From Candidatus Omnitrophota bacterium (GTDB lineage Bacteria > Omnitrophota > Gorgyraeia > 1-14-0-20-64-10): DNA of 64,000 nt. The stretch's first letter is position 1. Each line of letters begins with the position of its first letter. Both the position numbers and the translations under genes were made by a program. This document shows positions 1,542 through 24,055 of the stretch, one piece after another. The stretch covers positions 212,873 through 276,872 of the forward strand of contig JAHFFE010000001.1 of NCBI GenBank assembly GCA_023248155.1, given 5' to 3'. The notes below the pieces were generated by a model, which saw only the letters and a program-made list of their open reading frames with translations, was not told the DNA's origin and did no database searches.

Positions 1542-4500
1542 ATGAAACACCAATCCCCCCAACCTATAACGGGTCGTCTTTGGGCGCTTATTTTGGTCAT
1601 TGCGCTTGCTTTGCCAAATCCTGCCCTCGCTCTGCGCCCTACAGGCCTTGAAGAAAGCTCCTCTAAAAACAAAAGTAATTTTCTTAGTCAATTAGCCGCT
1701 TCTTCTGCCGGGCAGGAAGAAAGAACCCATCTCCTTGAGCTGGGGGATTCGCAATCTATTTACGATCGAATGGTCGACATCGCTCAAATAGTTGTCGGCT
1801 CAAGCATATTTGATCAAGATGCTGTGACAGAGTTTCTTCTAGGCGACGAGCCACCTGTTGTAATTCTTGCTTTAGATAAAGTAAAGGTTTTTTATGCTCC
1901 TGGAGATTCCCTCGACCAAAATCAAAGTGGTAACGATATTTTAATTGTATGGGAGCAGGGTTCATTTGACGAGAGAGAGATTGCACAATATTTCCGCACT
2001 ATTGGTGCAGATGATCCGTCGCTGCTTCCTTCAGTAGAAGGAGCTATAGATTTCAGTTTTAATTTTTCCAGCGGGATGCCAGCCGGGAGCCTGACAGACA
2101 TTCGGGTTGCCGAAGTGATACATCATTTAGACACGGGCGGCGATATAACGCTTAGAATTAAGTATTCAAAAGTGGCTGAAATCGCCGAGCGTCTCCCAGT
2201 CGTTTTGGCATTGGCAGCGCGGTTTATCAAAAAAGGCTATAATCCTTTCTCCGCCGGGCAGGAGGAGAAAACACAGCTACCCTTTAATCGAAGAACGGCT
2301 CTTCGAACCTTTGGGGTATTGTTGGGATTGCCGTTCTTGTCGGAATTTACGATTGCACAAAACTCAGTTAGTCCGCCCAAAATATTAACAACGCTGCAAC
2401 TGCCGCCGGTGCCACTGCCCAATAGTTTGATGGCTCAAAAAGCCGTTCGTCTTGCCACGAAAACCGACAGTACCTTTAAGGATAATTCCGGCGCCAAACT
2501 CTGGGTTGCTGGTTGGCCGGGAGACTCTGTTCAACCGAAACCGGTCATCATTCCAAAGGGTGTCAATTTGGTGGGCGAGGGTGATGCCGCTCAGGTTCTT
2601 GAAGGGAACCTAACCATAGGATCCGGTTCCATTGTCGCCAATATGACGATTCGCGGCGATGTTACGCTTACCGGCGGCGCGCAATTACTAAACTCGGTTG
2701 TCCAGGGCCGCGTGATTCTGGCCGGCGATGCCAATCAGGTTCGGGGGAACCGTATTTTTGGAAATACACTCTACCGTGAAAATGGGAAATTGCAGTATTC
2801 GCTCGGTCCTGCCGGCCCGCTGGTTCGTATTGGCACAAAAGAAGTCGCGTCCAACGGCAATGTTTTGGAAGGTAACAGTATTATTGCCGGTGTCCCTCCC
2901 GCTGAAATCGGATACCACCCTACCGCTTATCTGAAGAAACAATTTCCCAACGATGAACAACCGCAAACAAGTATGGGCAGATCAAGAAAACTCGAATTGT
3001 CTGCGGTCCATGTCGTCCAGGGAGCTCAAAATAAACTTCGGTATAACACAATCGTTTCATTGGAGAGCGATGCTCCCGCTGTTTTGGTAGGCGCGTGGCG
3101 CGAATATGTTTTGCCGGATAGGGGTAAAGTTATTGGATCGGTGACGCTTGAAAACAATGTCGCCATCAATATCGGAAAACTTGATCCCGACAGAATAAGA
3201 CCTATTGTGGCGGATCGAGAGGTAGTTTCCGGCGGGAATAATCTAATGATCTCGGAGCAGTTCATTCACACTCAAGCTAAAGTAACTGATTCGGACCGCG
3301 CCTACGGCATCGCCGCGGGTCCGACGATAGAGTTCAGGCCGGAACGGGAGATGTTGTTTGAGCGCGCGAACGGAGCACCCAAGAAAAGCTCCTTCGACCT
3401 GATCGGTACGCAGCCAGGCACTTACCGATTAAGGAAAGAATTCTTTGATCAGAATACTCCATTCGGAAAATTTCCCGAGATAGGCGTATTCCGTCAATCG
3501 AGCGACCAGCAGGCCGGGCAGGAGGAGAAGACAACACCCAAACCCAACATGAATTTGGCAGGGCCGGCCGGTCTGCGCCCTCAGTTCGATAAAATCAGTG
3601 CGCTGCAAGGACTCTCACCAGCCAGAAAAGACCAATTGGCACAGGCAATCGCCAGCGAAAGACCTTTCTCCGGTTATAAAGATTCCGCCGATTTGGTTGC
3701 CCGCATGAGGGGGCAAGTTTCCGGTGTCAACACCACCCAGTTGCAGGCGATAGGAAATCATTTCCAGCCGGGCATGTCCAGACGCGGCTTGCTTGCGATT
3801 GCTTTTGGAGTGACATTGCTGGCAGCAGTTCCTGTAGCCCTATGGCTTTTCCAGCCTGCGACGGCACCGGAGGGACATATTGTCTGGGTTTTCGAACCAC
3901 ATGGAGCAAATGATCTGGGAGTTGTTTTCGCCGAATTGCGCGCCGCCGCCAAAAGCGGACAGAAAACCATCTATATTCGGGAATCTGTCCCTTTCGCCAA
4001 CTTTTCACAACTCAACGCAGAGGCTCCAAAACTTGCCCAACAATTGAAGCCTGAGACCATCGACCCTCTGCTCGCGTTGTATGAACAAAATGGAGAAGAG
4101 GGGCTTCTAAAAGAATCGGCGCTTGCCCGGGAAATAAAAACTCTTTACGAAGAACGGCAAAAAGATGCAGACATAGAGATTCCGCAGCTTCGTTCCGATC
4201 CATCGGTTCTCAAGGATCCGCCGCCCGGCCTGGATCAGAATATTCTTTTAGAAGCACAGTTGCTGGTCGATTATCCCAACATTGAAGTCCGGAACGAAAA
4301 AGCTTCATTTATTGCTTATCTTTATCACATCCGATCAGAATGGACGAACGAACTGGCTGGCCGGGCTCTTTTTGGCGATAACGACCGCGATGCCTATTTC
4401 CGTTTCATGATGGATTCCTTCCGCTACGAGGCGCTTAATATTGAGCTGCGTGACCGGCCCTTTGCCTCTTTCGTTGAATCGATTCTTCGGGAAAACCCAG

Positions 4501-7091
4501 GTGCCACTGTTGTTGTACAGCGCGGTCTTTATCATGTTGTATCTGAATACGGTATCGATTACGATACGCTGAAATTCCGTTCCATAGAACGAAGGGTAGA
4601 AATAGATGACTCTATTACCAAGATAGCGTTTTTTTACCACGAACAGTTTCTAAGAGGAGAGTCGGTTCCTGTTTCGGATAAAATGCGCCGGAGTATGCTG
4701 GAAAATTTTATCGGTGATTCAGTGACGCGATTGTTGCAGGAAGAAACATCATCGGCCATTGCTTTTCGGGAAGCGGCTTCAATTACCGGAGCGTTGTCAG
4801 ATCAAGAGCTGGACGAACTCATCAAATTCCTTGGGGAAGATTTTGTAGCTTTTCGAGAAAACCAGAAGACGGCTTTCTTTGGAGCCTGGAATAGTCAAAG
4901 AGATTTAACGACACTGCAATGGCTGCAGACGCATCAAAAAATATCTGCCGCTAATTTCGAAATACTTCGTCCTGCAATCAATCGTCGAGTAAACGCCGGG
5001 CAGGAAGAATTGGGCACGGTGGTTATCGACCAGCACCAAAAACCTATTTCGGCGGTGGCGATCAGCTCGGACGGAAAAACAATTGCCTCTGGAGATAGTG
5101 CCGGCCGGTTGATCATCAAGCAGGTGGAAGGAGCACCGGAACCGATCATCGTTAATACGGGAAATGTAATTACCGACCTGGTTTTTGATACCAGCGGCGG
5201 AAAAATTGCCGTGGGATATGTCAACGGAGCCATTGCATTTTACGATCCGCAAACCGGAAAGACATTTCCAGAAGATGTCGCTCAACCGACTGAGCTGGGT
5301 TCTTTGATCTGGGATATGGCGTTCCACAGAGAAGGTCATCTTACCGCGATTTCTCATCCAGGACTTATTCATTCGATTGATCCTGAAACGGGTGATATCG
5401 ACCGTCTCTTTGAAGGACTTGTTAAATTCTCAACAACTCCCGGAATTGTTCGTATGGCCGTTGCTTTCCCGAACAACGAAAGCAGTCCCAAGTTCGCGAT
5501 TTCTGGTGATTCTGAAGTAAGGGTTATTGAAGAAGGTTTATCGCCCCGCGAGATCGACAGGTTTGAGGCGCCGGGTCATGTAATTCAGCAATTGGCGATT
5601 GATCCGACCGGGCAATATCTGGTGGCTTCCAATCTGGAAGACAACGACGACGAAAACTGGATTCAACTGAGAGACATTAACGCGCATGCTTCTATAACAT
5701 TGAACGGTGTTCATCGGCAGAGAGCGAATGCAATAGCCTTTTCTCCCGATGGAAAAATGCTGGTTTCTGCGGGTAAAGACGGCCAGTTGGTTTTTTGGGA
5801 AGTTCCTTCAGGCCGCGTGATCAAAATCGTTTCGCTCGACCCGATGGAGGGCAAAATTCAGCCTGTACCTAAAAGAGGAGATCCGTCGTATGTAAGCTCT
5901 GTTATTTTTCATAATGTAGTTTTTACGCCCAACGGCCACTCGGTGCTGGTTGCCGTTGAAGATCAGCGCAGTAAGCAGCAGACCGTCCGGCAATTTTCCG
6001 TTCCCGCCGCCGGGCAGGAAAAAGATTTGCCGCTGGATATCCGGCAATGGGATATTGATCAAGCAGATGTGAATGGCAAACCAATCGAAGAGTTAGCTCT
6101 TGTGAAATTACCGCCGGAGGGCCTTCGCTTGCCGCACGCGGCCATTCCAAACGAAGGGGTCCAAATTTATTTAGGGATTGCGGGGGTTCATCTTTCTCCG
6201 GAACCGGCTCCATGGTGGAGTGGTTTTCTTTTTTTGAAATCGGCCGCAAAGTCTCTGCGACTGACACAGACGGTGGCGCACAGCGACAAAGGCAAGATTC
6301 TCCGGCAGGGTGGAACGCCCATTCTGCTTGGCCTAGATCCGCAACAAGGAGCTTCATCACAATACGCGGCGGGGCCTTTTGACCCGTATCTTGTTTCGGT
6401 CGCTGGAGTTTCCAGGGCACACCTGCTTATTCGCTGGGATACGAATGGGGATATTGTTTTCAAGGACCTCAATTCCAGAAATGGCACCTGGATTGATCGA
6501 CAAGCCGCAGAACAGATCAAAGTGGGTTCACTGGCGATTCCATTTGTTAGCGCCGGGCAGGAGGAGGGAATCACGGTTGCTTTTCCGGAATCGGTATTGC
6601 AGGATGCGCAAAGACAGGGCGTTACTGTTTTTGATGCCGAGCAATTGGCAGGCTACGGTATTCCGGGCGCGCATGGAATATTAATTGCCGACTCAGCAAA
6701 CAGCAAGAGTTCTTCTGGGAAAATTTACGCGGACAATGAATTAGAAAACAGAGCCGCAGAAAGAGTATTCACTTGGGTGCTCGCCGGTGATAACGCAGTC
6801 GATATTATAGAGACTGCTGAAATTAATTCGGCAGCGGCCGGAGATTTAATTATTTTACGCCCGGAAACAGGTTTGGATAACGATCGAATTAAACAACTTT
6901 TGGAAGCGCAATGGATTAATCCTTCCGTTCGGGTCGTTGTTGGGGACGCTTCCGTTGTGAATGGGCTTTCCGTGAATGCGTTTCGTTTGCTGGCAGGGGG
7001 ACTTGATTTGCCGCCGGTGGTATTCCTCAACACAACGGTTCGCTTGAATGATGAAGCTGGCAATACTTACACGCTGATCCTGATGGCGTAA
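1542..7091 (+). CDS. Giant secreted/membrane multidomain protein (1849 aa): signal peptide, right-handed beta-helix, internal TM helix, WD40-like beta-propeller, FHA domain; six (A)GQEE(K/R) motifs between domains
   Basis: Single uninterrupted ORF. N-terminal signal peptide (LWALILVIALALPNPALA); parallel beta-helix repeats (NLTIGSGSIVANMTIRGDVTLTGGAQLLNSVVQGRVILAGDANQV); TM GLLAIAFGVTLLAAVPVALWLF; WD40-like blades (ISSDGKTIASGDSAGRLII, FSPDGKMLVSAGKDGQLVFWEV); FHA signature (VSRAHLLIRWDTNGDIVFKDLNSRNGTWIDRQ); AGQEE at aa ~56, 238, 658, 1152, 1490, 1671. Confidence 0.85.
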   Translation: MKHQSPQPITGRLWALILVIALALPNPALALRPTGLEESSSKNKSNFLSQLAASSAGQEERTHLLELGDSQSIYDRMVDIAQIVVGSSIFDQDAVTEFLLGDEPPVVILALDKVKVFYAPGDSLDQNQSGNDILIVWEQGSFDEREIAQYFRTIGADDPSLLPSVEGAIDFSFNFSSGMPAGSLTDIRVAEVIHHLDTGGDITLRIKYSKVAEIAERLPVVLALAARFIKKGYNPFSAGQEEKTQLPFNRRTALRTFGVLLGLPFLSEFTIAQNSVSPPKILTTLQLPPVPLPNSLMAQKAVRLATKTDSTFKDNSGAKLWVAGWPGDSVQPKPVIIPKGVNLVGEGDAAQVLEGNLTIGSGSIVANMTIRGDVTLTGGAQLLNSVVQGRVILAGDANQVRGNRIFGNTLYRENGKLQYSLGPAGPLVRIGTKEVASNGNVLEGNSIIAGVPPAEIGYHPTAYLKKQFPNDEQPQTSMGRSRKLELSAVHVVQGAQNKLRYNTIVSLESDAPAVLVGAWREYVLPDRGKVIGSVTLENNVAINIGKLDPDRIRPIVADREVVSGGNNLMISEQFIHTQAKVTDSDRAYGIAAGPTIEFRPEREMLFERANGAPKKSSFDLIGTQPGTYRLRKEFFDQNTPFGKFPEIGVFRQSSDQQAGQEEKTTPKPNMNLAGPAGLRPQFDKISALQGLSPARKDQLAQAIASERPFSGYKDSADLVARMRGQVSGVNTTQLQAIGNHFQPGMSRRGLLAIAFGVTLLAAVPVALWLFQPATAPEGHIVWVFEPHGANDLGVVFAELRAAAKSGQKTIYIRESVPFANFSQLNAEAPKLAQQLKPETIDPLLALYEQNGEEGLLKESALAREIKTLYEERQKDADIEIPQLRSDPSVLKDPPPGLDQNILLEAQLLVDYPNIEVRNEKASFIAYLYHIRSEWTNELAGRALFGDNDRDAYFRFMMDSFRYEALNIELRDRPFASFVESILRENPGATVVVQRGLYHVVSEYGIDYDTLKFRSIERRVEIDDSITKIAFFYHEQFLRGESVPVSDKMRRSMLENFIGDSVTRLLQEETSSAIAFREAASITGALSDQELDELIKFLGEDFVAFRENQKTAFFGAWNSQRDLTTLQWLQTHQKISAANFEILRPAINRRVNAGQEELGTVVIDQHQKPISAVAISSDGKTIASGDSAGRLIIKQVEGAPEPIIVNTGNVITDLVFDTSGGKIAVGYVNGAIAFYDPQTGKTFPEDVAQPTELGSLIWDMAFHREGHLTAISHPGLIHSIDPETGDIDRLFEGLVKFSTTPGIVRMAVAFPNNESSPKFAISGDSEVRVIEEGLSPREIDRFEAPGHVIQQLAIDPTGQYLVASNLEDNDDENWIQLRDINAHASITLNGVHRQRANAIAFSPDGKMLVSAGKDGQLVFWEVPSGRVIKIVSLDPMEGKIQPVPKRGDPSYVSSVIFHNVVFTPNGHSVLVAVEDQRSKQQTVRQFSVPAAGQEKDLPLDIRQWDIDQADVNGKPIEELALVKLPPEGLRLPHAAIPNEGVQIYLGIAGVHLSPEPAPWWSGFLFLKSAAKSLRLTQTVAHSDKGKILRQGGTPILLGLDPQQGASSQYAAGPFDPYLVSVAGVSRAHLLIRWDTNGDIVFKDLNSRNGTWIDRQAAEQIKVGSLAIPFVSAGQEEGITVAFPESVLQDAQRQGVTVFDAEQLAGYGIPGAHGILIADSANSKSSSGKIYADNELENRAAERVFTWVLAGDNAVDIIETAEINSAAAGDLIILRPETGLDNDRIKQLLEAQWINPSVRVVVGDASVVNGLSVNAFRLLAGGLDLPPVVFLNTTVRLNDEAGNTYTLILMA

Positions 7092-7814: not shown

Positions 7815-7913
7815 ACAGGCCTTTTTCCCTTTGTTTCAGAACGATAATTTGTTATCTTGATAAAATACGGTTTGCTCCGGAAATTTATCCGTTGGGCGGT
7901 TAGAAAGCACTTT

Positions 7914-7987
7914 GCGCCCGTAGCTCAACTGGATAGAGTGACAGGCTTCGAACCTGGAGGTTGGGGGTTCAAATCCCTCCGGGCGCG
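7914..7987 (+). tRNA. tRNA-Arg (anticodon TCG)
   Basis: GCGCCCGTAGCTCAACTGGATAGAGTG...; anticodon loop CTTCGAA; T-arm GGTTCAAATCC; acceptor closes CGGGCGC. Confidence 0.8.
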
Positions 7988-7996
7988 GGCTTTATC

Positions 7997-8072
7997 GGGC
8001 CGTTAGCTCAGCTGGTAGAGCAGGGGACTCTTAATCCCAAGGTCATAGGTTCGATCCCTATACGGCCCACCA
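7997..8072 (+). tRNA. tRNA-Lys (anticodon CTT), CCA encoded
   Basis: GGGCCGTTAGCTCAGCTGGTAGAGCAG...; anticodon loop CTCTTAA; T-arm GGTTCGATCC; ends ACGGCCCACCA. Confidence 0.82.
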
Positions 8073-8100
8073 TTATTATCAATGTTCTTTGTTAAACAGC

Positions 8101-8185
8101 TGGGCATGTGGCGGAATTGGCAGACGCGCAGGATTTAGGATCCTGTCCCGTAAGGGGTGGGGGTTCAACTCCCTCCTTGCCCACG
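8101..8185 (+). tRNA. tRNA-Leu (anticodon TAG), class II with long variable arm
   Basis: D-arm TGGCGGAATTGGCAGACGCGC typical of tRNA-Leu; anticodon loop TTTAGGA; variable arm; T-arm GGTTCAACTCC. Exact ends uncertain (one apparent acceptor-stem mismatch). Confidence 0.65.
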
Positions 8186-8215
8186 GGCAGTCTTAAAAAT
8201 TTAAAGTAGTTTATC

Positions 8216-8290
8216 GCGGGAGTAACTCAGCGGTAGAGTGCAACCTTGCCAAGGTTGAGGTCGAGGGTTCGAATCCCTTCTCCCGCTCCA
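8216..8290 (+). tRNA. tRNA-Gly (anticodon GCC), CCA encoded
   Basis: GCGGGAGTAACTCAGCGGTAGAGTG; anticodon stem-loop CAACC-TTGCCAA-GGTTG; T-arm GGTTCGAATCC; ends CTCCCGCTCCA. Confidence 0.85.
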
Positions 8291-20695: not shown

Positions 20696-21175
20696 ATGCG
20701 TCGTATGATGGTTTTACTTGGAATCTTTGTTTGGATGTTGAATGGAGTTTCGGTTGCGATGGCCGAAGAAACTGGTTCTTCTGCGACATCGGATATGGCT
20801 GCCATGACCACCGCCGATATGGCTAATCCTCCGGCGGAAGAAGCCGCTCCCGTTGAGTCTGCCCCCGCCGAGTCGGCTCCAGTCGCTCCGGCGCCTGTCG
20901 CGATTACGCCGCCGGCTCTCAAGCCGATTACCATCACCTTCAGCGGTGAGGTAGTTTCCACAGATGTGGCTGCAAGCCAAATCACAATTCAGGACCGTTA
21001 TGGCGTTAAGAAAGAAATTGCCGTACCGGCCGAGGCCAGAATCAGCCAGGGCGCCAATTCCAAGACCTTGGGTGATTTAAAAGCCGCCGACAAAGTGACC
21101 GTGGAGTATACCTACGATGTTGCTTCGAACAAGCGGACGGCCCAGACGATTTCTCTAGGCGAAGCGGCTTCGTAA
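20696..21175 (+). CDS. Secreted hypothetical protein with Ala/Pro-rich linker
   Basis: Signal peptide MRRMMVLLGIFVWMLNGVSVAMA, low-complexity PAEEAAPVESAPAESAPVAPAPVAITPP linker, ~80-aa C-terminal domain; own promoter, SD and terminator. Confidence 0.6.
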   Translation: MRRMMVLLGIFVWMLNGVSVAMAEETGSSATSDMAAMTTADMANPPAEEAAPVESAPAESAPVAPAPVAITPPALKPITITFSGEVVSTDVAASQITIQDRYGVKKEIAVPAEARISQGANSKTLGDLKAADKVTVEYTYDVASNKRTAQTISLGEAAS

Positions 21176-21202
21176 GCTTTTTCGGAAATTGGTTTTACAA
21201 AA

Positions 21203-21236
21203 AGCCGGACAGGAAAAATCCTGTTCGGCTTTTTAT
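21203..21236 (+). terminator. Rho-independent terminator
   Basis: GCCGGACAGG-aaaaat-CCTGTTCGGC hairpin followed by TTTTTATTT. Confidence 0.65.
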
Positions 21237-21254
21237 TTGGATAGGACGGCTTGA

Positions 21255-22619
21255 ATGACGCCAAATCCGATCATTTTGGAAATAAAAACGCTTTCTCCCG
21301 ACGGGCTGGGTGTTGCCCAATGGGAAGGGAAAACCGTTTTGGTGCGCGATGCGCTGGCCGGCGAACAAGTCGAGGCGGAAATTATTCGCCGCCGGCGCGG
21401 CCAAACGGAAGCAAAAACCCTGCGCGTGATCGTTCCGGCCCAAGACCGCGTTTCTCCGCGCTGCGCCCATTTCGGCATTTGCGGCGGATGCAAACTTCAG
21501 CACCTTAGCTACGATTCACAAGTTGAGTGGAAAGGCCGCTGGCTCGGAAATTTATTCCGCGCCGAACTGCCGGGCCAAATCGATGTTCCGCTTGAACGCG
21601 TCGCGATGGAAGACCCCTGGCAATACCGCGGCAAGATGGAATTTTCTTTTTCTCCGGAAGAGGGCCGACTGGGACTGGGACTTCACCGCAGCGGAAGTTT
21701 TCAGCGCGTTGTGAATCTGAAGGAATGCCCGATCGCGCCCGATGTGGTTTCGGCGCTGTTGCCGGTGATTCGCGCGGCGGCCGAGGCGTCGGGGCAGCCG
21801 GCCTACGACACCCGCCGCTGCGAGGGGTTCTGGCGCCACGCGGTGGTGCGCGTTTCGCGCAGCGCGCAGACGGCGATGGTGACCATCGTTACGCGCGAAG
21901 GTCCTGCCGAATGGATGGAACCGATGGTTCGCATGATTCGCGAACAGGTCCCGCAGGTCAAAGCGTTATTTTGGGGAATTTCCAACCGCATTTCCGATGT
22001 CGCCTACGCCGAAAAAATGACCCAATTATTCGGCGATGATCATTTGGAAGATCAGATCGGCGCGGTCCGGTTTCATTTCGGCCCGACGCAGTTTGTTCAG
22101 CCAAATCGTCTTCTCGCCGAGGCGGCCTATCAGGCAATCCGCGAAAATTGCCGGCTGACCGGAAATGAAACGGTCTATGATCTTTATTGCGGCATGGGGT
22201 TGATCAGTCTGGCGCTGGCGCCGTTTGCGCGCGCCGTTTATGGAGTCGAATCGGAGAGTGACAATGTGGCGCTGGCCGAGCAGAACGCCGCGCTCAACGG
22301 CATTACCAACGCGTCGTTTATCTGCGGGAAAACCGAAGATCTTTTACGCGGCGGCGCCATTTTTAAGTTGGGCGGGAAGCCGGATCGGATTGTGCTGGAC
22401 CCGCCGCGCGCCGGACTGCATGGCGACAGCATCGCGCCGGTGTTGCAGGCGCGCGCGCCGCGGATCGTTTATCTTTCGTGCAATCCGAAAACGCTGGTCA
22501 ACGATTTAAAAGCGATGCTCAAGCGCGATCCAGCCTACCGCGTCGAGCGCGTGCAGTGGTTTGATTTTTTTCCGCATACCATCCATATGGAAACGCTCGT
22601 CACGCTCGTCCGCCGCTAA
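21255..22619 (+). CDS. rlmD: 23S rRNA (uracil-5-)-methyltransferase RlmD/RumA (TRAM + SAM-MTase)
   Basis: N-terminal TRAM domain, 4Fe-4S cysteines (CAHFGICGGCKLQHL), C-terminal SAM methyltransferase with DPPRAGL motif. Confidence 0.88.
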   Translation: MTPNPIILEIKTLSPDGLGVAQWEGKTVLVRDALAGEQVEAEIIRRRRGQTEAKTLRVIVPAQDRVSPRCAHFGICGGCKLQHLSYDSQVEWKGRWLGNLFRAELPGQIDVPLERVAMEDPWQYRGKMEFSFSPEEGRLGLGLHRSGSFQRVVNLKECPIAPDVVSALLPVIRAAAEASGQPAYDTRRCEGFWRHAVVRVSRSAQTAMVTIVTREGPAEWMEPMVRMIREQVPQVKALFWGISNRISDVAYAEKMTQLFGDDHLEDQIGAVRFHFGPTQFVQPNRLLAEAAYQAIRENCRLTGNETVYDLYCGMGLISLALAPFARAVYGVESESDNVALAEQNAALNGITNASFICGKTEDLLRGGAIFKLGGKPDRIVLDPPRAGLHGDSIAPVLQARAPRIVYLSCNPKTLVNDLKAMLKRDPAYRVERVQWFDFFPHTIHMETLVTLVRR

Positions 22620-22620
22620 G

Positions 22621-23048
22621 CCACTCGCTTCTTCACGCTTCCGTCAGGCAACCTGTGTTTCGAGTCGGCTCGGGCATGGGAGCCGTGGACACGCTCGGAA
22701 TCGACTACCGATTCCGTCGCTCTGTCTCCGGCCTTGCCGAAGAACAATTCGTTTCGGCCTCCGCCAAGGTCCACTTGCCCCATATCCCGATCCGCCTCTT
22801 ACCACGCATGAGTTAGAGTGAGAGCCACGAAGGGGTCCCGGAGCTTCGAGCGATTCCGTGCAGGATAAGGCTGAGCAGGCACTGGAAACCCTGAGCGGGC
22901 ATGGTTCTCCGTCGAAGACGGAGAGAGCGAAGGGTTGACCGTAGTGCAGCGAGACTCGCAGGGGCGAGCAAGCGGCCTGCGAACGCCTTGCCTGACGGAA
23001 GCGCGAAGAAGCGTACCGTGTCCACGGTCCCCATGCCCGGGCCGACTC
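22621..23048. repeat. ORF-less intergenic block with two long crossing complementary segment pairs (possible structured RNA or rearrangement scar)
   Basis: A: 22626-22651 pairs with 22988-23013 (26 nt, 1 mismatch). B: 22662-22693 pairs with 23017-23048 (32 nt, 1 mismatch + 2 GU). The order is A,B...A',B' (crossing), plus internal hairpins at 22696-22716 and ~22910-22922. Confidence 0.5.
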
Positions 23049-23114
23049 TAAATTAATAGTGAGCGAGAAAACGGGTTTGAATTCGCGGGTCGGGAACTTT
23101 ACAATAGAGGGACG

Positions 23115-23615
23115 ATGCGCGCTGACAACAATTACAAAGAATCCAAAATTTTCTCGCTGGTGCTGATACCGCTCTTAAGTCAGTATGTGCTGACGCTGGA
23201 AGAAGTGGGGGGTCAGCGGCTGATTCCGATCTGGATCGGCATCAACGAGGGCAACGCCATCGGCGTTTATCTGCAGGGCGAAAAAATTCCGCGCCCGATG
23301 ACGCATGATCTGATGGCCAACTTTTTGAAAATCCTGGGCGCGCGCGTTGAACGGATTCTGATTTCTGATTTAAAGGACGGCACGTATTACGCGACGGTCG
23401 GGTTGACGTCCGGCAACCAGCGGTTCGAGATCGACGCCCGGCCTTCCGACGCGCTGGCGCTGGCTGTGCGCACCGACAGCCCGATTCTTGTCAGTGAAAA
23501 AGTTCTGAAGAAATGCCCGGTCATCATGAAGCCGATCAGCGATGAGGAAGTGGATCGCTTCAAGAAACAGCTGGAAGTGCTGAAACCGGAAGATTTCTTT
23601 AAAGGTCTTGAGTAG
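23115..23615 (+). CDS. Bifunctional nuclease family protein (BFN/DUF151)
   Basis: MTHDLMANFLKILGARVERILISDLKDGTYYATVGLTSGNQRFEIDARPSDALALAVR is characteristic of the BFN domain. Confidence 0.75.
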   Translation: MRADNNYKESKIFSLVLIPLLSQYVLTLEEVGGQRLIPIWIGINEGNAIGVYLQGEKIPRPMTHDLMANFLKILGARVERILISDLKDGTYYATVGLTSGNQRFEIDARPSDALALAVRTDSPILVSEKVLKKCPVIMKPISDEEVDRFKKQLEVLKPEDFFKGLE

Positions 23616-24000
23616 AACCGCCCTGCTCCAGCCGCTTTGAAATGCCCAAGCCGATCTGCTGAGCGATATCCACTTTCGGGAGCAGGTGCTTTCGCGCGCG
23701 CACCGTGACGCGGACCGCCGAGGGGGTTAACTGCTTGAGTGTGATTGCCACATCGGCATCCTGAACCAGCGCGGCGATCCGGCCGTGGTTCAAATCTTCT
23801 TTCTTGATCAACCCCTGCGATTTGGCTTCTTCCAGCGCCGCCTGCCAGACTTCCATCCAGGGCTTTTCCAGCGTCAGTACCATCGAATCCCGGCTGATGG
23901 CGTACCCGGCGGCGGCACCCGTGACAATCAGCATCGGCGCGCATCCGAACAACCCGGTCATCATTCCTGCGCACAAAGTAGCGGCGAGAATTTTTCGCAT
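23599..24000 (-). CDS. Putative lipoprotein (hypothetical)
   Basis: Signal peptide with lipobox (MRKILAATLCAGMMTGLFGC); convergent, 17-nt overlap with the nuclease gene. Confidence 0.5.
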   Translation of the reverse strand: MRKILAATLCAGMMTGLFGCAPMLIVTGAAAGYAISRDSMVLTLEKPWMEVWQAALEEAKSQGLIKKEDLNHGRIAALVQDADVAITLKQLTPSAVRVTVRARKHLLPKVDIAQQIGLGISKRLEQGGSTQDL

Positions 24001-24055
24001 CAGGTATACTCCTTAAAGTAGAGTCTGTCGTTCATTGTACCCGAGAGGGAATCCA

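Follow-up and report, generated by a model that had tools for sequence, protein, structure and literature searches.

How does an intergenic block without a credible gene come to hold two long pairs of complementary segments that cross instead of nesting? The block lies between an rlmD-like methyltransferase gene and a gene for a bifunctional-nuclease (BFN) domain protein in the window, by which we mean the whole 64-kb stretch of DNA analysed here, and its segments run in the order A, B ... A′, B′. The initial annotation offered two readings of this order, a very long-range pseudoknotted RNA and the integration footprint of a circularly permuted, inverted duplication. We argue that the block most probably represents one member of a family of mosaic repeats, non-coding, rich in inverted repeats and MITE-like or BIME/RIME-like, which occupies intergenic positions in Omnitrophota-like genomes. 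The features of the block and of the other copies are collected in Table 1.

Table 1. Features of the inserted block and its flanks (window coordinates), followed by the module order, termini and neighbours of the copies of the family.
Feature	Position	Strand	Description
rlmD-like U5-methyltransferase gene	21255-22619		upstream flank of block
Whole inserted element	22620-23056	.	~435 bp; boundaries roughly +/-10 nt
Module A, left copy	22626-22651	+	CGCTTCTTCACGCTTCCGTCAGGCAA
Linker l	22652-22661	+	CCTGTGTTTC; between A and B; part of repeat end
Module B	22658-22693	+	terminal inverted repeat of complete family members; holds 6-bp hairpin CGGCTC/GAGCCG
Core (B + M1)	22662-22798	-	137 nt; closed by B:B″; three-helix fold; sole part in all eight copies
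Hairpin H1	22696-22703/22709-22716	.	perfect 8 bp, CGGAATCG-ACTAC-CGATTCCG
B″	22778-22798	+	degenerate inverted B copy; closes core hairpin
Segment X	22812-22846	+	motif GAGAGCCACGAAGGGG; position varies by copy
Module M2	22847-22987	+	A-like motif 22851-22873, partial B motif 22896-22904, hairpin 22906-22924
M2 hairpin	22906-22913/22917-22924	.	8 bp
Module A′	22988-23013	+	inverted copy of A
Module B′	23017-23052	+	right terminal inverted repeat
Promoter-like site of nuclease gene	23077-23105	+	TTGAAT-17-TACAAT; outside element
BFN domain protein gene	23115-23615		downstream flank; glycogen-debranching enzyme gene next
Window copy			A-l-B-M1-X-M2-A′-B′ (window orientation)
L101			(B* remnant)-X-A-l-B-M1-M2 ... 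contig end; adjoins globin and fumarase genes
L102			fragment, core only; between unrelated genes
L103			complete, B-M1-N-B′(short), N being a diverged M2; without A; between thiL and Rce1-like gene
L104			A-X-B-M1-M2-A′ ... contig end; adjoins thiL; 70% identical to window copy
L105 (two copies)			both on a 72-kb contig, 8 kb between them; one at def/priA, the other beside thiG
L105a			complete, B-M1-N-B′(short), N being a diverged M2; without A
L105b			B*-A-l-B-M1-N; truncated
L106-L109			a single locus, upstream of queF, present in the assemblies of four samples
L107			complete, B-M1-M2-A′-X′-B′(16 nt)
L107 termini			GAGTCAGCTCGGGCAT / ATGCCCGGACTGACTC
L103 and L105a termini			GAGTCRGYYCGGG / CCCGRRCYGACTC
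Family element ends			CCTRTGYTTCGAGTCRGYYCGGGCAT

Empty sites in related loci

In the window 495 nt separate the methyltransferase and nuclease genes, against 34-63 nt in seven syntenic relative loci (L081-L087), which we reached via homologues of the nuclease and which have the gene order methyltransferase, nuclease, debranching enzyme. The closest relative is L081, whose nuclease is 89% identical in amino acid sequence. DNA homology to L081 runs as far as the methyltransferase stop codon and picks up again at window position 23072, just upstream of the promoter-like site, and therefore ~435 bp (22620-23056) are extra in the window. By this sequence comparison the block is an insertion. The comparative alignment suggested in the initial annotation thus comes out as presence or absence of the whole block, with L081-L087 having the empty site. 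A locus scan of genome contigs for further relatives of the nuclease gave distant BFN proteins (≤50% identity) whose synteny is uninformative; the named homologues of the nuclease are from Candidatus Omnitrophica (66-74% identity).

The ORFs of the block are at most 86 aa long, Arg-rich and overlapping, and we judged them to be junk, in keeping with the initial view that no credible ORF lies here. A protein search with the 73-aa minus-strand ORF gave no relatives. Moreover, no transposase, recombinase or Y1 transposase was seen among the window ORFs scanned, and those tested are housekeeping genes. We also considered the block as a leader or riboswitch of the nuclease gene. The promoter-like site of this gene is downstream of the block and its sequence context is the same in the empty-site relative L081; the element is therefore not the nuclease leader, and this candidate was rejected.

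Some further observations concern the neighbourhood. The 3′ end of the methyltransferase gene (22587-22608, ATGGAAACGCTCGTCACGCTCG) matches the 3′ half of B (22676-22697, ATGGGAGCCGTGGACACGCTCG) at 16/22 positions. It is coding sequence that is also found in the empty-site relative L081, and the likeness could be fortuitous or could show where the element prefers to insert. In the region of window 23616-24034, the nuclease and debranching-enzyme genes of the relatives L082 and L086 (~75% identity) are separated by a carboxymuconolactone-decarboxylase-like (CMD) gene; it is apparently absent from the window and from L081, where there is only a minus-strand DUF3568-like ORF. Between the ORF at 20696-21175 and the methyltransferase start, window 21187-21246 is AT-rich (GC 0.37) and gives weak covariance-model matches on both strands (E about 0.02-0.03). 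A hairpin is suggested, perhaps one serving as a bidirectional terminator; this stretch has no relation to the repeat family. Four tRNA genes (Arg-TCG, Lys-CTT, Leu-TAG, Gly-GCC) are clustered at 7913-8290, and an 1849-aa ORF (1542-7091) lies between this cluster and a tRNA-Met at 1340-1416.

Crossing repeats and the folding of the block

The repeats themselves are much as they were first described. A and A′, reported as reverse complements with one mismatch, are complementary at 25/26 positions (26 nt, 96%), and the complementarity reported for B and B′ extends to arms of 36 nt at 89%, the three differences in the 32-nt version each being a transition. The order A, B ... A′, B′ is correct, and the two local hairpins reported, H1 and that of M2, are both real, with 8 bp each. 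To these we add B″ (22778-22798), a degenerate inverted repeat of B that is its third partner and had been missed, and, at 22896-22904, a partial copy of B in direct orientation (CGGGCATGG). Only weaker inverted repeats (19-28 nt, 75-85% complementary) are found in the rest of the 64 kb. The differences in the arms total four, all transitions, with two G·U on each strand. This is what is expected from neutral drift after duplication at the DNA level, and it carries no signature of selection at the RNA level.

Could a single RNA form both long helices at once, as the pseudoknot reading has it? Both pairs are highly significant: when the window was shuffled 100 times with its dinucleotides preserved, neither the A/A′ nor the B/B′ pattern appeared. 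The block as a whole also folds better than its shuffles (z -5.6 and -4.8). However, its interior of 294 nt has no more structure than shuffled versions of it (z -0.6 and -1.3), so the folding signal of the block comes from the two arm pairs alone. Moreover, the linker that joins A to B measures 10 nt and the one that joins A′ to B′ only 3 nt, against helices of 26 and 32-36 bp; judging from A-form dimensions such linkers could not span the helices, and A:A′ and B:B′ should therefore exclude each other. The arm differences are also without strand bias, and other copies lack one or both A modules. The long-range pseudoknot is thus not supported and is almost certainly the wrong reading. For the window copy the B:B′ conformer is the predicted minimum (-204/-207 kcal/mol), and the nested conformer A:A′ + B:B″ is a deep alternative minimum (-183/-188 kcal/mol), ~20 kcal/mol higher.

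Dispersed copies of the element

The initial annotation had proposed a search for additional copies, and the outcome differs with scope. Only one copy is present within the 64-kb window, as judged by a covariance model of the core that also found every known copy in the loci, and seven others were recovered on other contigs. They occupy six loci besides that of the window, with a single 72-kb contig carrying two of the copies, and are 70-96% identical to the window copy. The query that worked was a 55-aa spurious minus-strand ORF (22619-22783) over A, B and M1, which gave three matches among protein representatives (79-84% identity); a profile search and cluster listing added more. The contigs with other copies have samples in common with the Omnitrophota-like relatives, but not genes. 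Copies are carried by the ENA samples ERZ27280021, ERZ27280176 and ERZ27276474.

Proteins P0121-P0128 (29-70 aa; MGQVDLGGG...), called repeatedly on the minus strand of the repeat, are spurious ORFs. The S to W and D to H changes in P0121 and P0123 are the two sides of one compensated base pair, the C-G to G-C change of hairpin H1; since these changes are non-conservative and track pair compensation, it is the nucleic acid, rather than a protein, that is under selection. A real small protein was rejected on these grounds and because the C-termini vary.

Nucleotide searches were less productive. Exact-pattern scans with the B core gave 0 matches in genome contigs, 0 in viral contigs and 12 in metagenome contigs, the latter all chance matches inside GC-rich coding sequence (e.g. 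...SGMGTVDM...), and BLASTN against phage and plasmid collections gave no match. For an A-arm pattern with 19 specified bases about one chance match is expected. A 22-nt exact match to A′ occurs at L088:2800-2821, in a coding region of a viral contig and with no surrounding similarity; lying inside a phage gene, it was judged to be chance and rejected as another copy. A separate observation concerns L104, in which the called ATG of thiL (gene 376-1035) is inside the outer part of module A (L104:358-383, CGCGATGAAGCG, compared with CGCGAAGAAGCG in the window). Here the repeat may supply or overlap the start of the gene.

Four contigs (L101, L104, L106 and L109) begin inside the element, within ~20 nt equivalent to window 22974-22992, before or at A′, because repeats break short-read assemblies. 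The queF locus assembles through the element in two other samples (L107 and L108). Given that the window is probably from a metagenome-assembled genome, and that repeats break such assemblies, the crossing order might be an artefact, namely a chimeric join of inverted reads. However, the same junctions are present in independent assemblies from other samples, with A-l-B recurring in L105 and L101, M2-A′ in L107/L108 and L104, and B-A in L105, and we regard an artefact as extremely improbable. Besides breaking metagenome assemblies, such repeats seed databases with spurious small "proteins" (P0121-P0128), and they are usable as strain markers.

Module order and the origin of the crossing

The complete copies (L107/L108, L103 and L105:9845-10126) have B-type terminal inverted repeats (GAGTCRGYYCGGGC...GCCCGRRCYGACTC), with B as the left terminus of L103, L105a and L107. 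The block thus proves to belong to a multi-copy, dispersed element whose full copies end in standard B-type terminal inverted repeats, a finding that the initial annotation itself had named as one that would refute its reading.

Around these termini the modules vary. A is present zero, one or two times per element and is missing from the left end of L103, L105:9845-10126 and L107; L107 has A′ alone, without the left A, and therefore A is not required in pairs. The arrangement A-linker-B is also found at L105:2221-2288 and in L101. Counterparts of the linker are seen as a T-rich stretch before GAGTC in L105b, L101, L103 and L105a, and its reverse complement flanks the short B end of L107 (CCTATGCTTCGAGTC). 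Segment X is not at its window position in L101, L104 or L107: an X-like sequence precedes A in L101 and separates A from B in L104, and L107 has one in inverted orientation, with A′ on one side and the short B′ on the other. M2 is kept in L101, L104 and L106/L107, with the diverged module N in its place in L103, L105a and L105b. The unit B-M1-N-B′ is present at two different loci, L103 and L105a, and therefore appears to move as a unit.

The right end of the window copy provides the link between these arrangements and the crossing. Window 22987-23049 (A′-B′) is the inverted homologue of L105:2186-2247 (B*-A), with 78% identity over 63 nt (E = 4e-8), and the order in L105b is a degenerate B*, 4 nt, A and then l-B-M1. 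In the window copy A starts 6 nt past the methyltransferase stop codon, no B* is present, and the inserted DNA thus begins at A and not at a B terminus.

The family is assembled from reused short modules, in which B acts as the terminal inverted repeat and also occurs internally, and A is subterminal. We propose that the canonical long ends are [B-A] on the left and [A′-B′] on the right, in ordinary nesting around a core hairpin in which the internal B pairs with the degenerate inverted B″ and closes the conserved 137-nt core. No single recovered copy has both [B*-A] and [A′-B′], and the nested form is pieced together from two copies. The window copy would have landed between the methyltransferase stop codon and the nuclease promoter, its outer left B having been lost or being missing; B′ would then find its best complement in the internal core B, and the apparent order A, B ... 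A′, B′ would arise for this reason. A:A′ and B:B′ would be alternative pairings, never formed together. Mobilisation would be in trans, by a transposase recognising the B ends; the window and the other loci examined contain neither a transposase nor an autonomous element that shares these ends. Likewise, the flanks of the window copy, L103, L105a and L107 show no consistent target-site duplication, the only candidates, CTAA (window) and TGCTT (L107), not being in agreement.

Other routes to the crossing order fit less well. Simple nesting of two elements was rejected, as crossing pairs cannot arise by nesting. Circular permutation was rejected too: the left A is inverted relative to A′, not merely moved. 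Of the initial proposal of an integration footprint left by a circularly permuted inverted duplication, the insertion thus stands, in view of the empty sites, and the permutation falls.

The order A, B ... A′, B′ is formally that of a FLEx arrangement, and the interleaved pairs could in principle be the recombination sites of a DNA inversion switch, in which inversion at one pair turns the other into direct repeats. In line with this, the orientation of the element relative to thiL differs between L103 and L104, and segment X occurs in both orientations among the copies. However, L103 and L104 are 22% divergent and have different sets of modules and are therefore not two states of one switch, and the complete copies carry one A or none, so that interleaving is not a feature of the family. 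Moreover, no recombinase gene is present among the neighbouring ORFs scanned and no promoter-like site inside the block. We consider such a switch very improbable and retain the mosaic repeat family as the preferred reading.

The conserved core

The core is 78-96% identical in L101-L107 and scores 183.5 bits in the window with its covariance model. The consensus fold of the minus strand has 51 pairs, 4 of which show compensatory change, and 94.8% of its cells are paired; the plus strand gives 43 pairs. Helix 1 of this fold comprises 19 pairs, among which column pair 38/158 is UA in four sequences, CG in two and AU in one. Compensation is seen in further hairpins: the H1 stem of L101 reads GGAATGG/CCATTCC, a C-G to G-C change, and the M2 hairpin changes from TCTCCGTC/GACGGAGA in the window to TCTCCGCC/GGCGGAGA in other copies (U-A to C-G). 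In the local hairpin of B the variants CGGCTC/GAGCCG, CGGTTC/GGACCG and CGGCCC/GGACCG (one mismatch) mostly keep the pairing, and the 5′ half of B in L105b (GAGGCGGATCGGG) is perfectly complementary to B″. Coming from eight related sequences, the fold, its compensation and its lean to the minus strand are suggestive only.

These data raise the question of whether the core, possibly with M2, is a structured non-coding RNA gene on the minus strand of the window, present in several copies per genome, in which the repeats are RNA helices and dispersal is secondary. Such a gene would fit a core that keeps its identity while the flanking modules are swapped, the larger number of pairs on the minus strand, and the compensatory changes in H1, helix 1 and the M2 hairpin. 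In addition, by covariation measures just 1/500 shuffles equals the observed value. However, only 8 closely related sequences are available, and kinship alone can outdo shuffles without any structure. The 6:1 ratio of consensus G·U to A·C on the minus strand of the core does not reach significance (about p = 0.06), and this was the strand for which the fold had been optimised. Neither a promoter nor a terminator is conserved alongside the core, orientation relative to neighbouring genes is inconsistent among copies, and many copies are truncated (L102, L105b). Moreover, compensated hairpins are equally expected of ends that act as single-stranded DNA. We therefore consider an RNA gene unlikely, and in the mosaic repeat family the compensated hairpins may have their role in a transcript or in an intermediate of single-stranded DNA.

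An Rfam 15 scan of 22300-23400 on both strands, taken to E = 10, gave just one weak match, which lies in a coding region and is unrelated, and the block is thus without a known RNA family, the question on which the initial annotation had called for such a scan. Rfam found only tRNAs across the whole window and no match to the element in L101, L102, L104 and L107. It is quite unlikely that the core (22662-22798, minus strand) is an undescribed structured RNA of Omnitrophota-like bacteria, riding on a mobile repeat or dispersed by one. Compensatory and G·U-compatible changes would then maintain its three helices, and A/A′ and B/B′ would be mutually exclusive closing helices. If the core is transcribed, it would be a new structured RNA for a lineage with few known ones.

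Comparison with known systems

The engineered FLEx/DIO switch, with its interleaved antiparallel lox sites, resembles the window copy in having site 1, site 2, cargo, inverted 1 and inverted 2. The element differs from it in lacking a recombinase nearby, evidence of inversion, and interleaving in complete members. PATEs, which derive from IS200/IS605 elements, have ends that are not inverted repeats and carry similar subterminal hairpins on the same strand at both ends. In contrast, the ends of the element are true inverted repeats, and the hairpin loops of B and B′ (GGGCATGG and CCATGCCC) are complementary, not identical, on one strand.

Closer parallels are found among the palindromic repeats. 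A REP unit is an imperfect palindrome of 20-40 nt, and inverted pairs of it make a hairpin. REPINs are REP doublets that form hairpins and are mobilised by RAYT transposases (PMC3116915, PMC3337134). The element is partly like them in that two inverted copies of a short palindrome-containing repeat, B and B″, are predicted to form a long hairpin, and the compensatory maintenance of its hairpins suggests a single-stranded intermediate. However, B has a 6-bp palindrome with an 8-nt loop and its inverted B″ lies ~85 nt away, so that size and spacing exceed those of typical REPINs, in which the spacer is short where that of the element is about 85 nt or more. The REP palindromes described in PMC3733652 have a GTAG or CGTC tetranucleotide tag at one end; such a tag is in neither B nor its complement, CGTC being found only at the 3′ side of H1. 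REP families also number tens to hundreds of copies and come with a RAYT (Y1 transposase) gene, and no such gene was seen among the window ORFs scanned.

With the BIMEs of enterobacteria, the RIMEs of rhizobia and the BOX elements of pneumococcus, the element shares the recurrence of modules (A, B, X, M1, M2/N) in varying number, order and orientation, a position just past gene ends, and the capacity to form hairpins. Its modules are longer, however, its 137-nt core is larger than a REP/PU unit, and there is no sequence similarity.

Lastly, the bacterial MITEs (Correia/NEMIS, RUP, Nezha) resemble the element in being small (280-435 bp here), ORF-less, intergenic, multi-copy and strongly fold-back, with presence or absence at an empty site and terminal inverted repeats of ~16-36 nt in complete copies. 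At ~435 bp and without a coding gene the window copy falls within the size of MITEs (<~600 bp), and terminal inverted repeats and dispersed filled and empty sites are both found. The element differs from MITEs in having no consistent target-site duplication, a feature by which MITEs are recognised, and, in the loci examined, no autonomous parent, which for a MITE is an insertion sequence with matching ends that encodes the transposase. A further difference is that in the window copy A and the linker lie outside the left B repeat. To this extent the initial statement that the block is not bounded by a simple MITE-type terminal inverted repeat is right for the window copy, and it does not extend to the complete copies with their B-type ends. 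Taken together, the exotic candidate for a pseudoknot or integration scar gives way to a repeat family that has no name yet, from a candidate phylum that has been little studied, and, set beside these systems, the element is bacterial junk or mobile DNA of a fairly ordinary sort.
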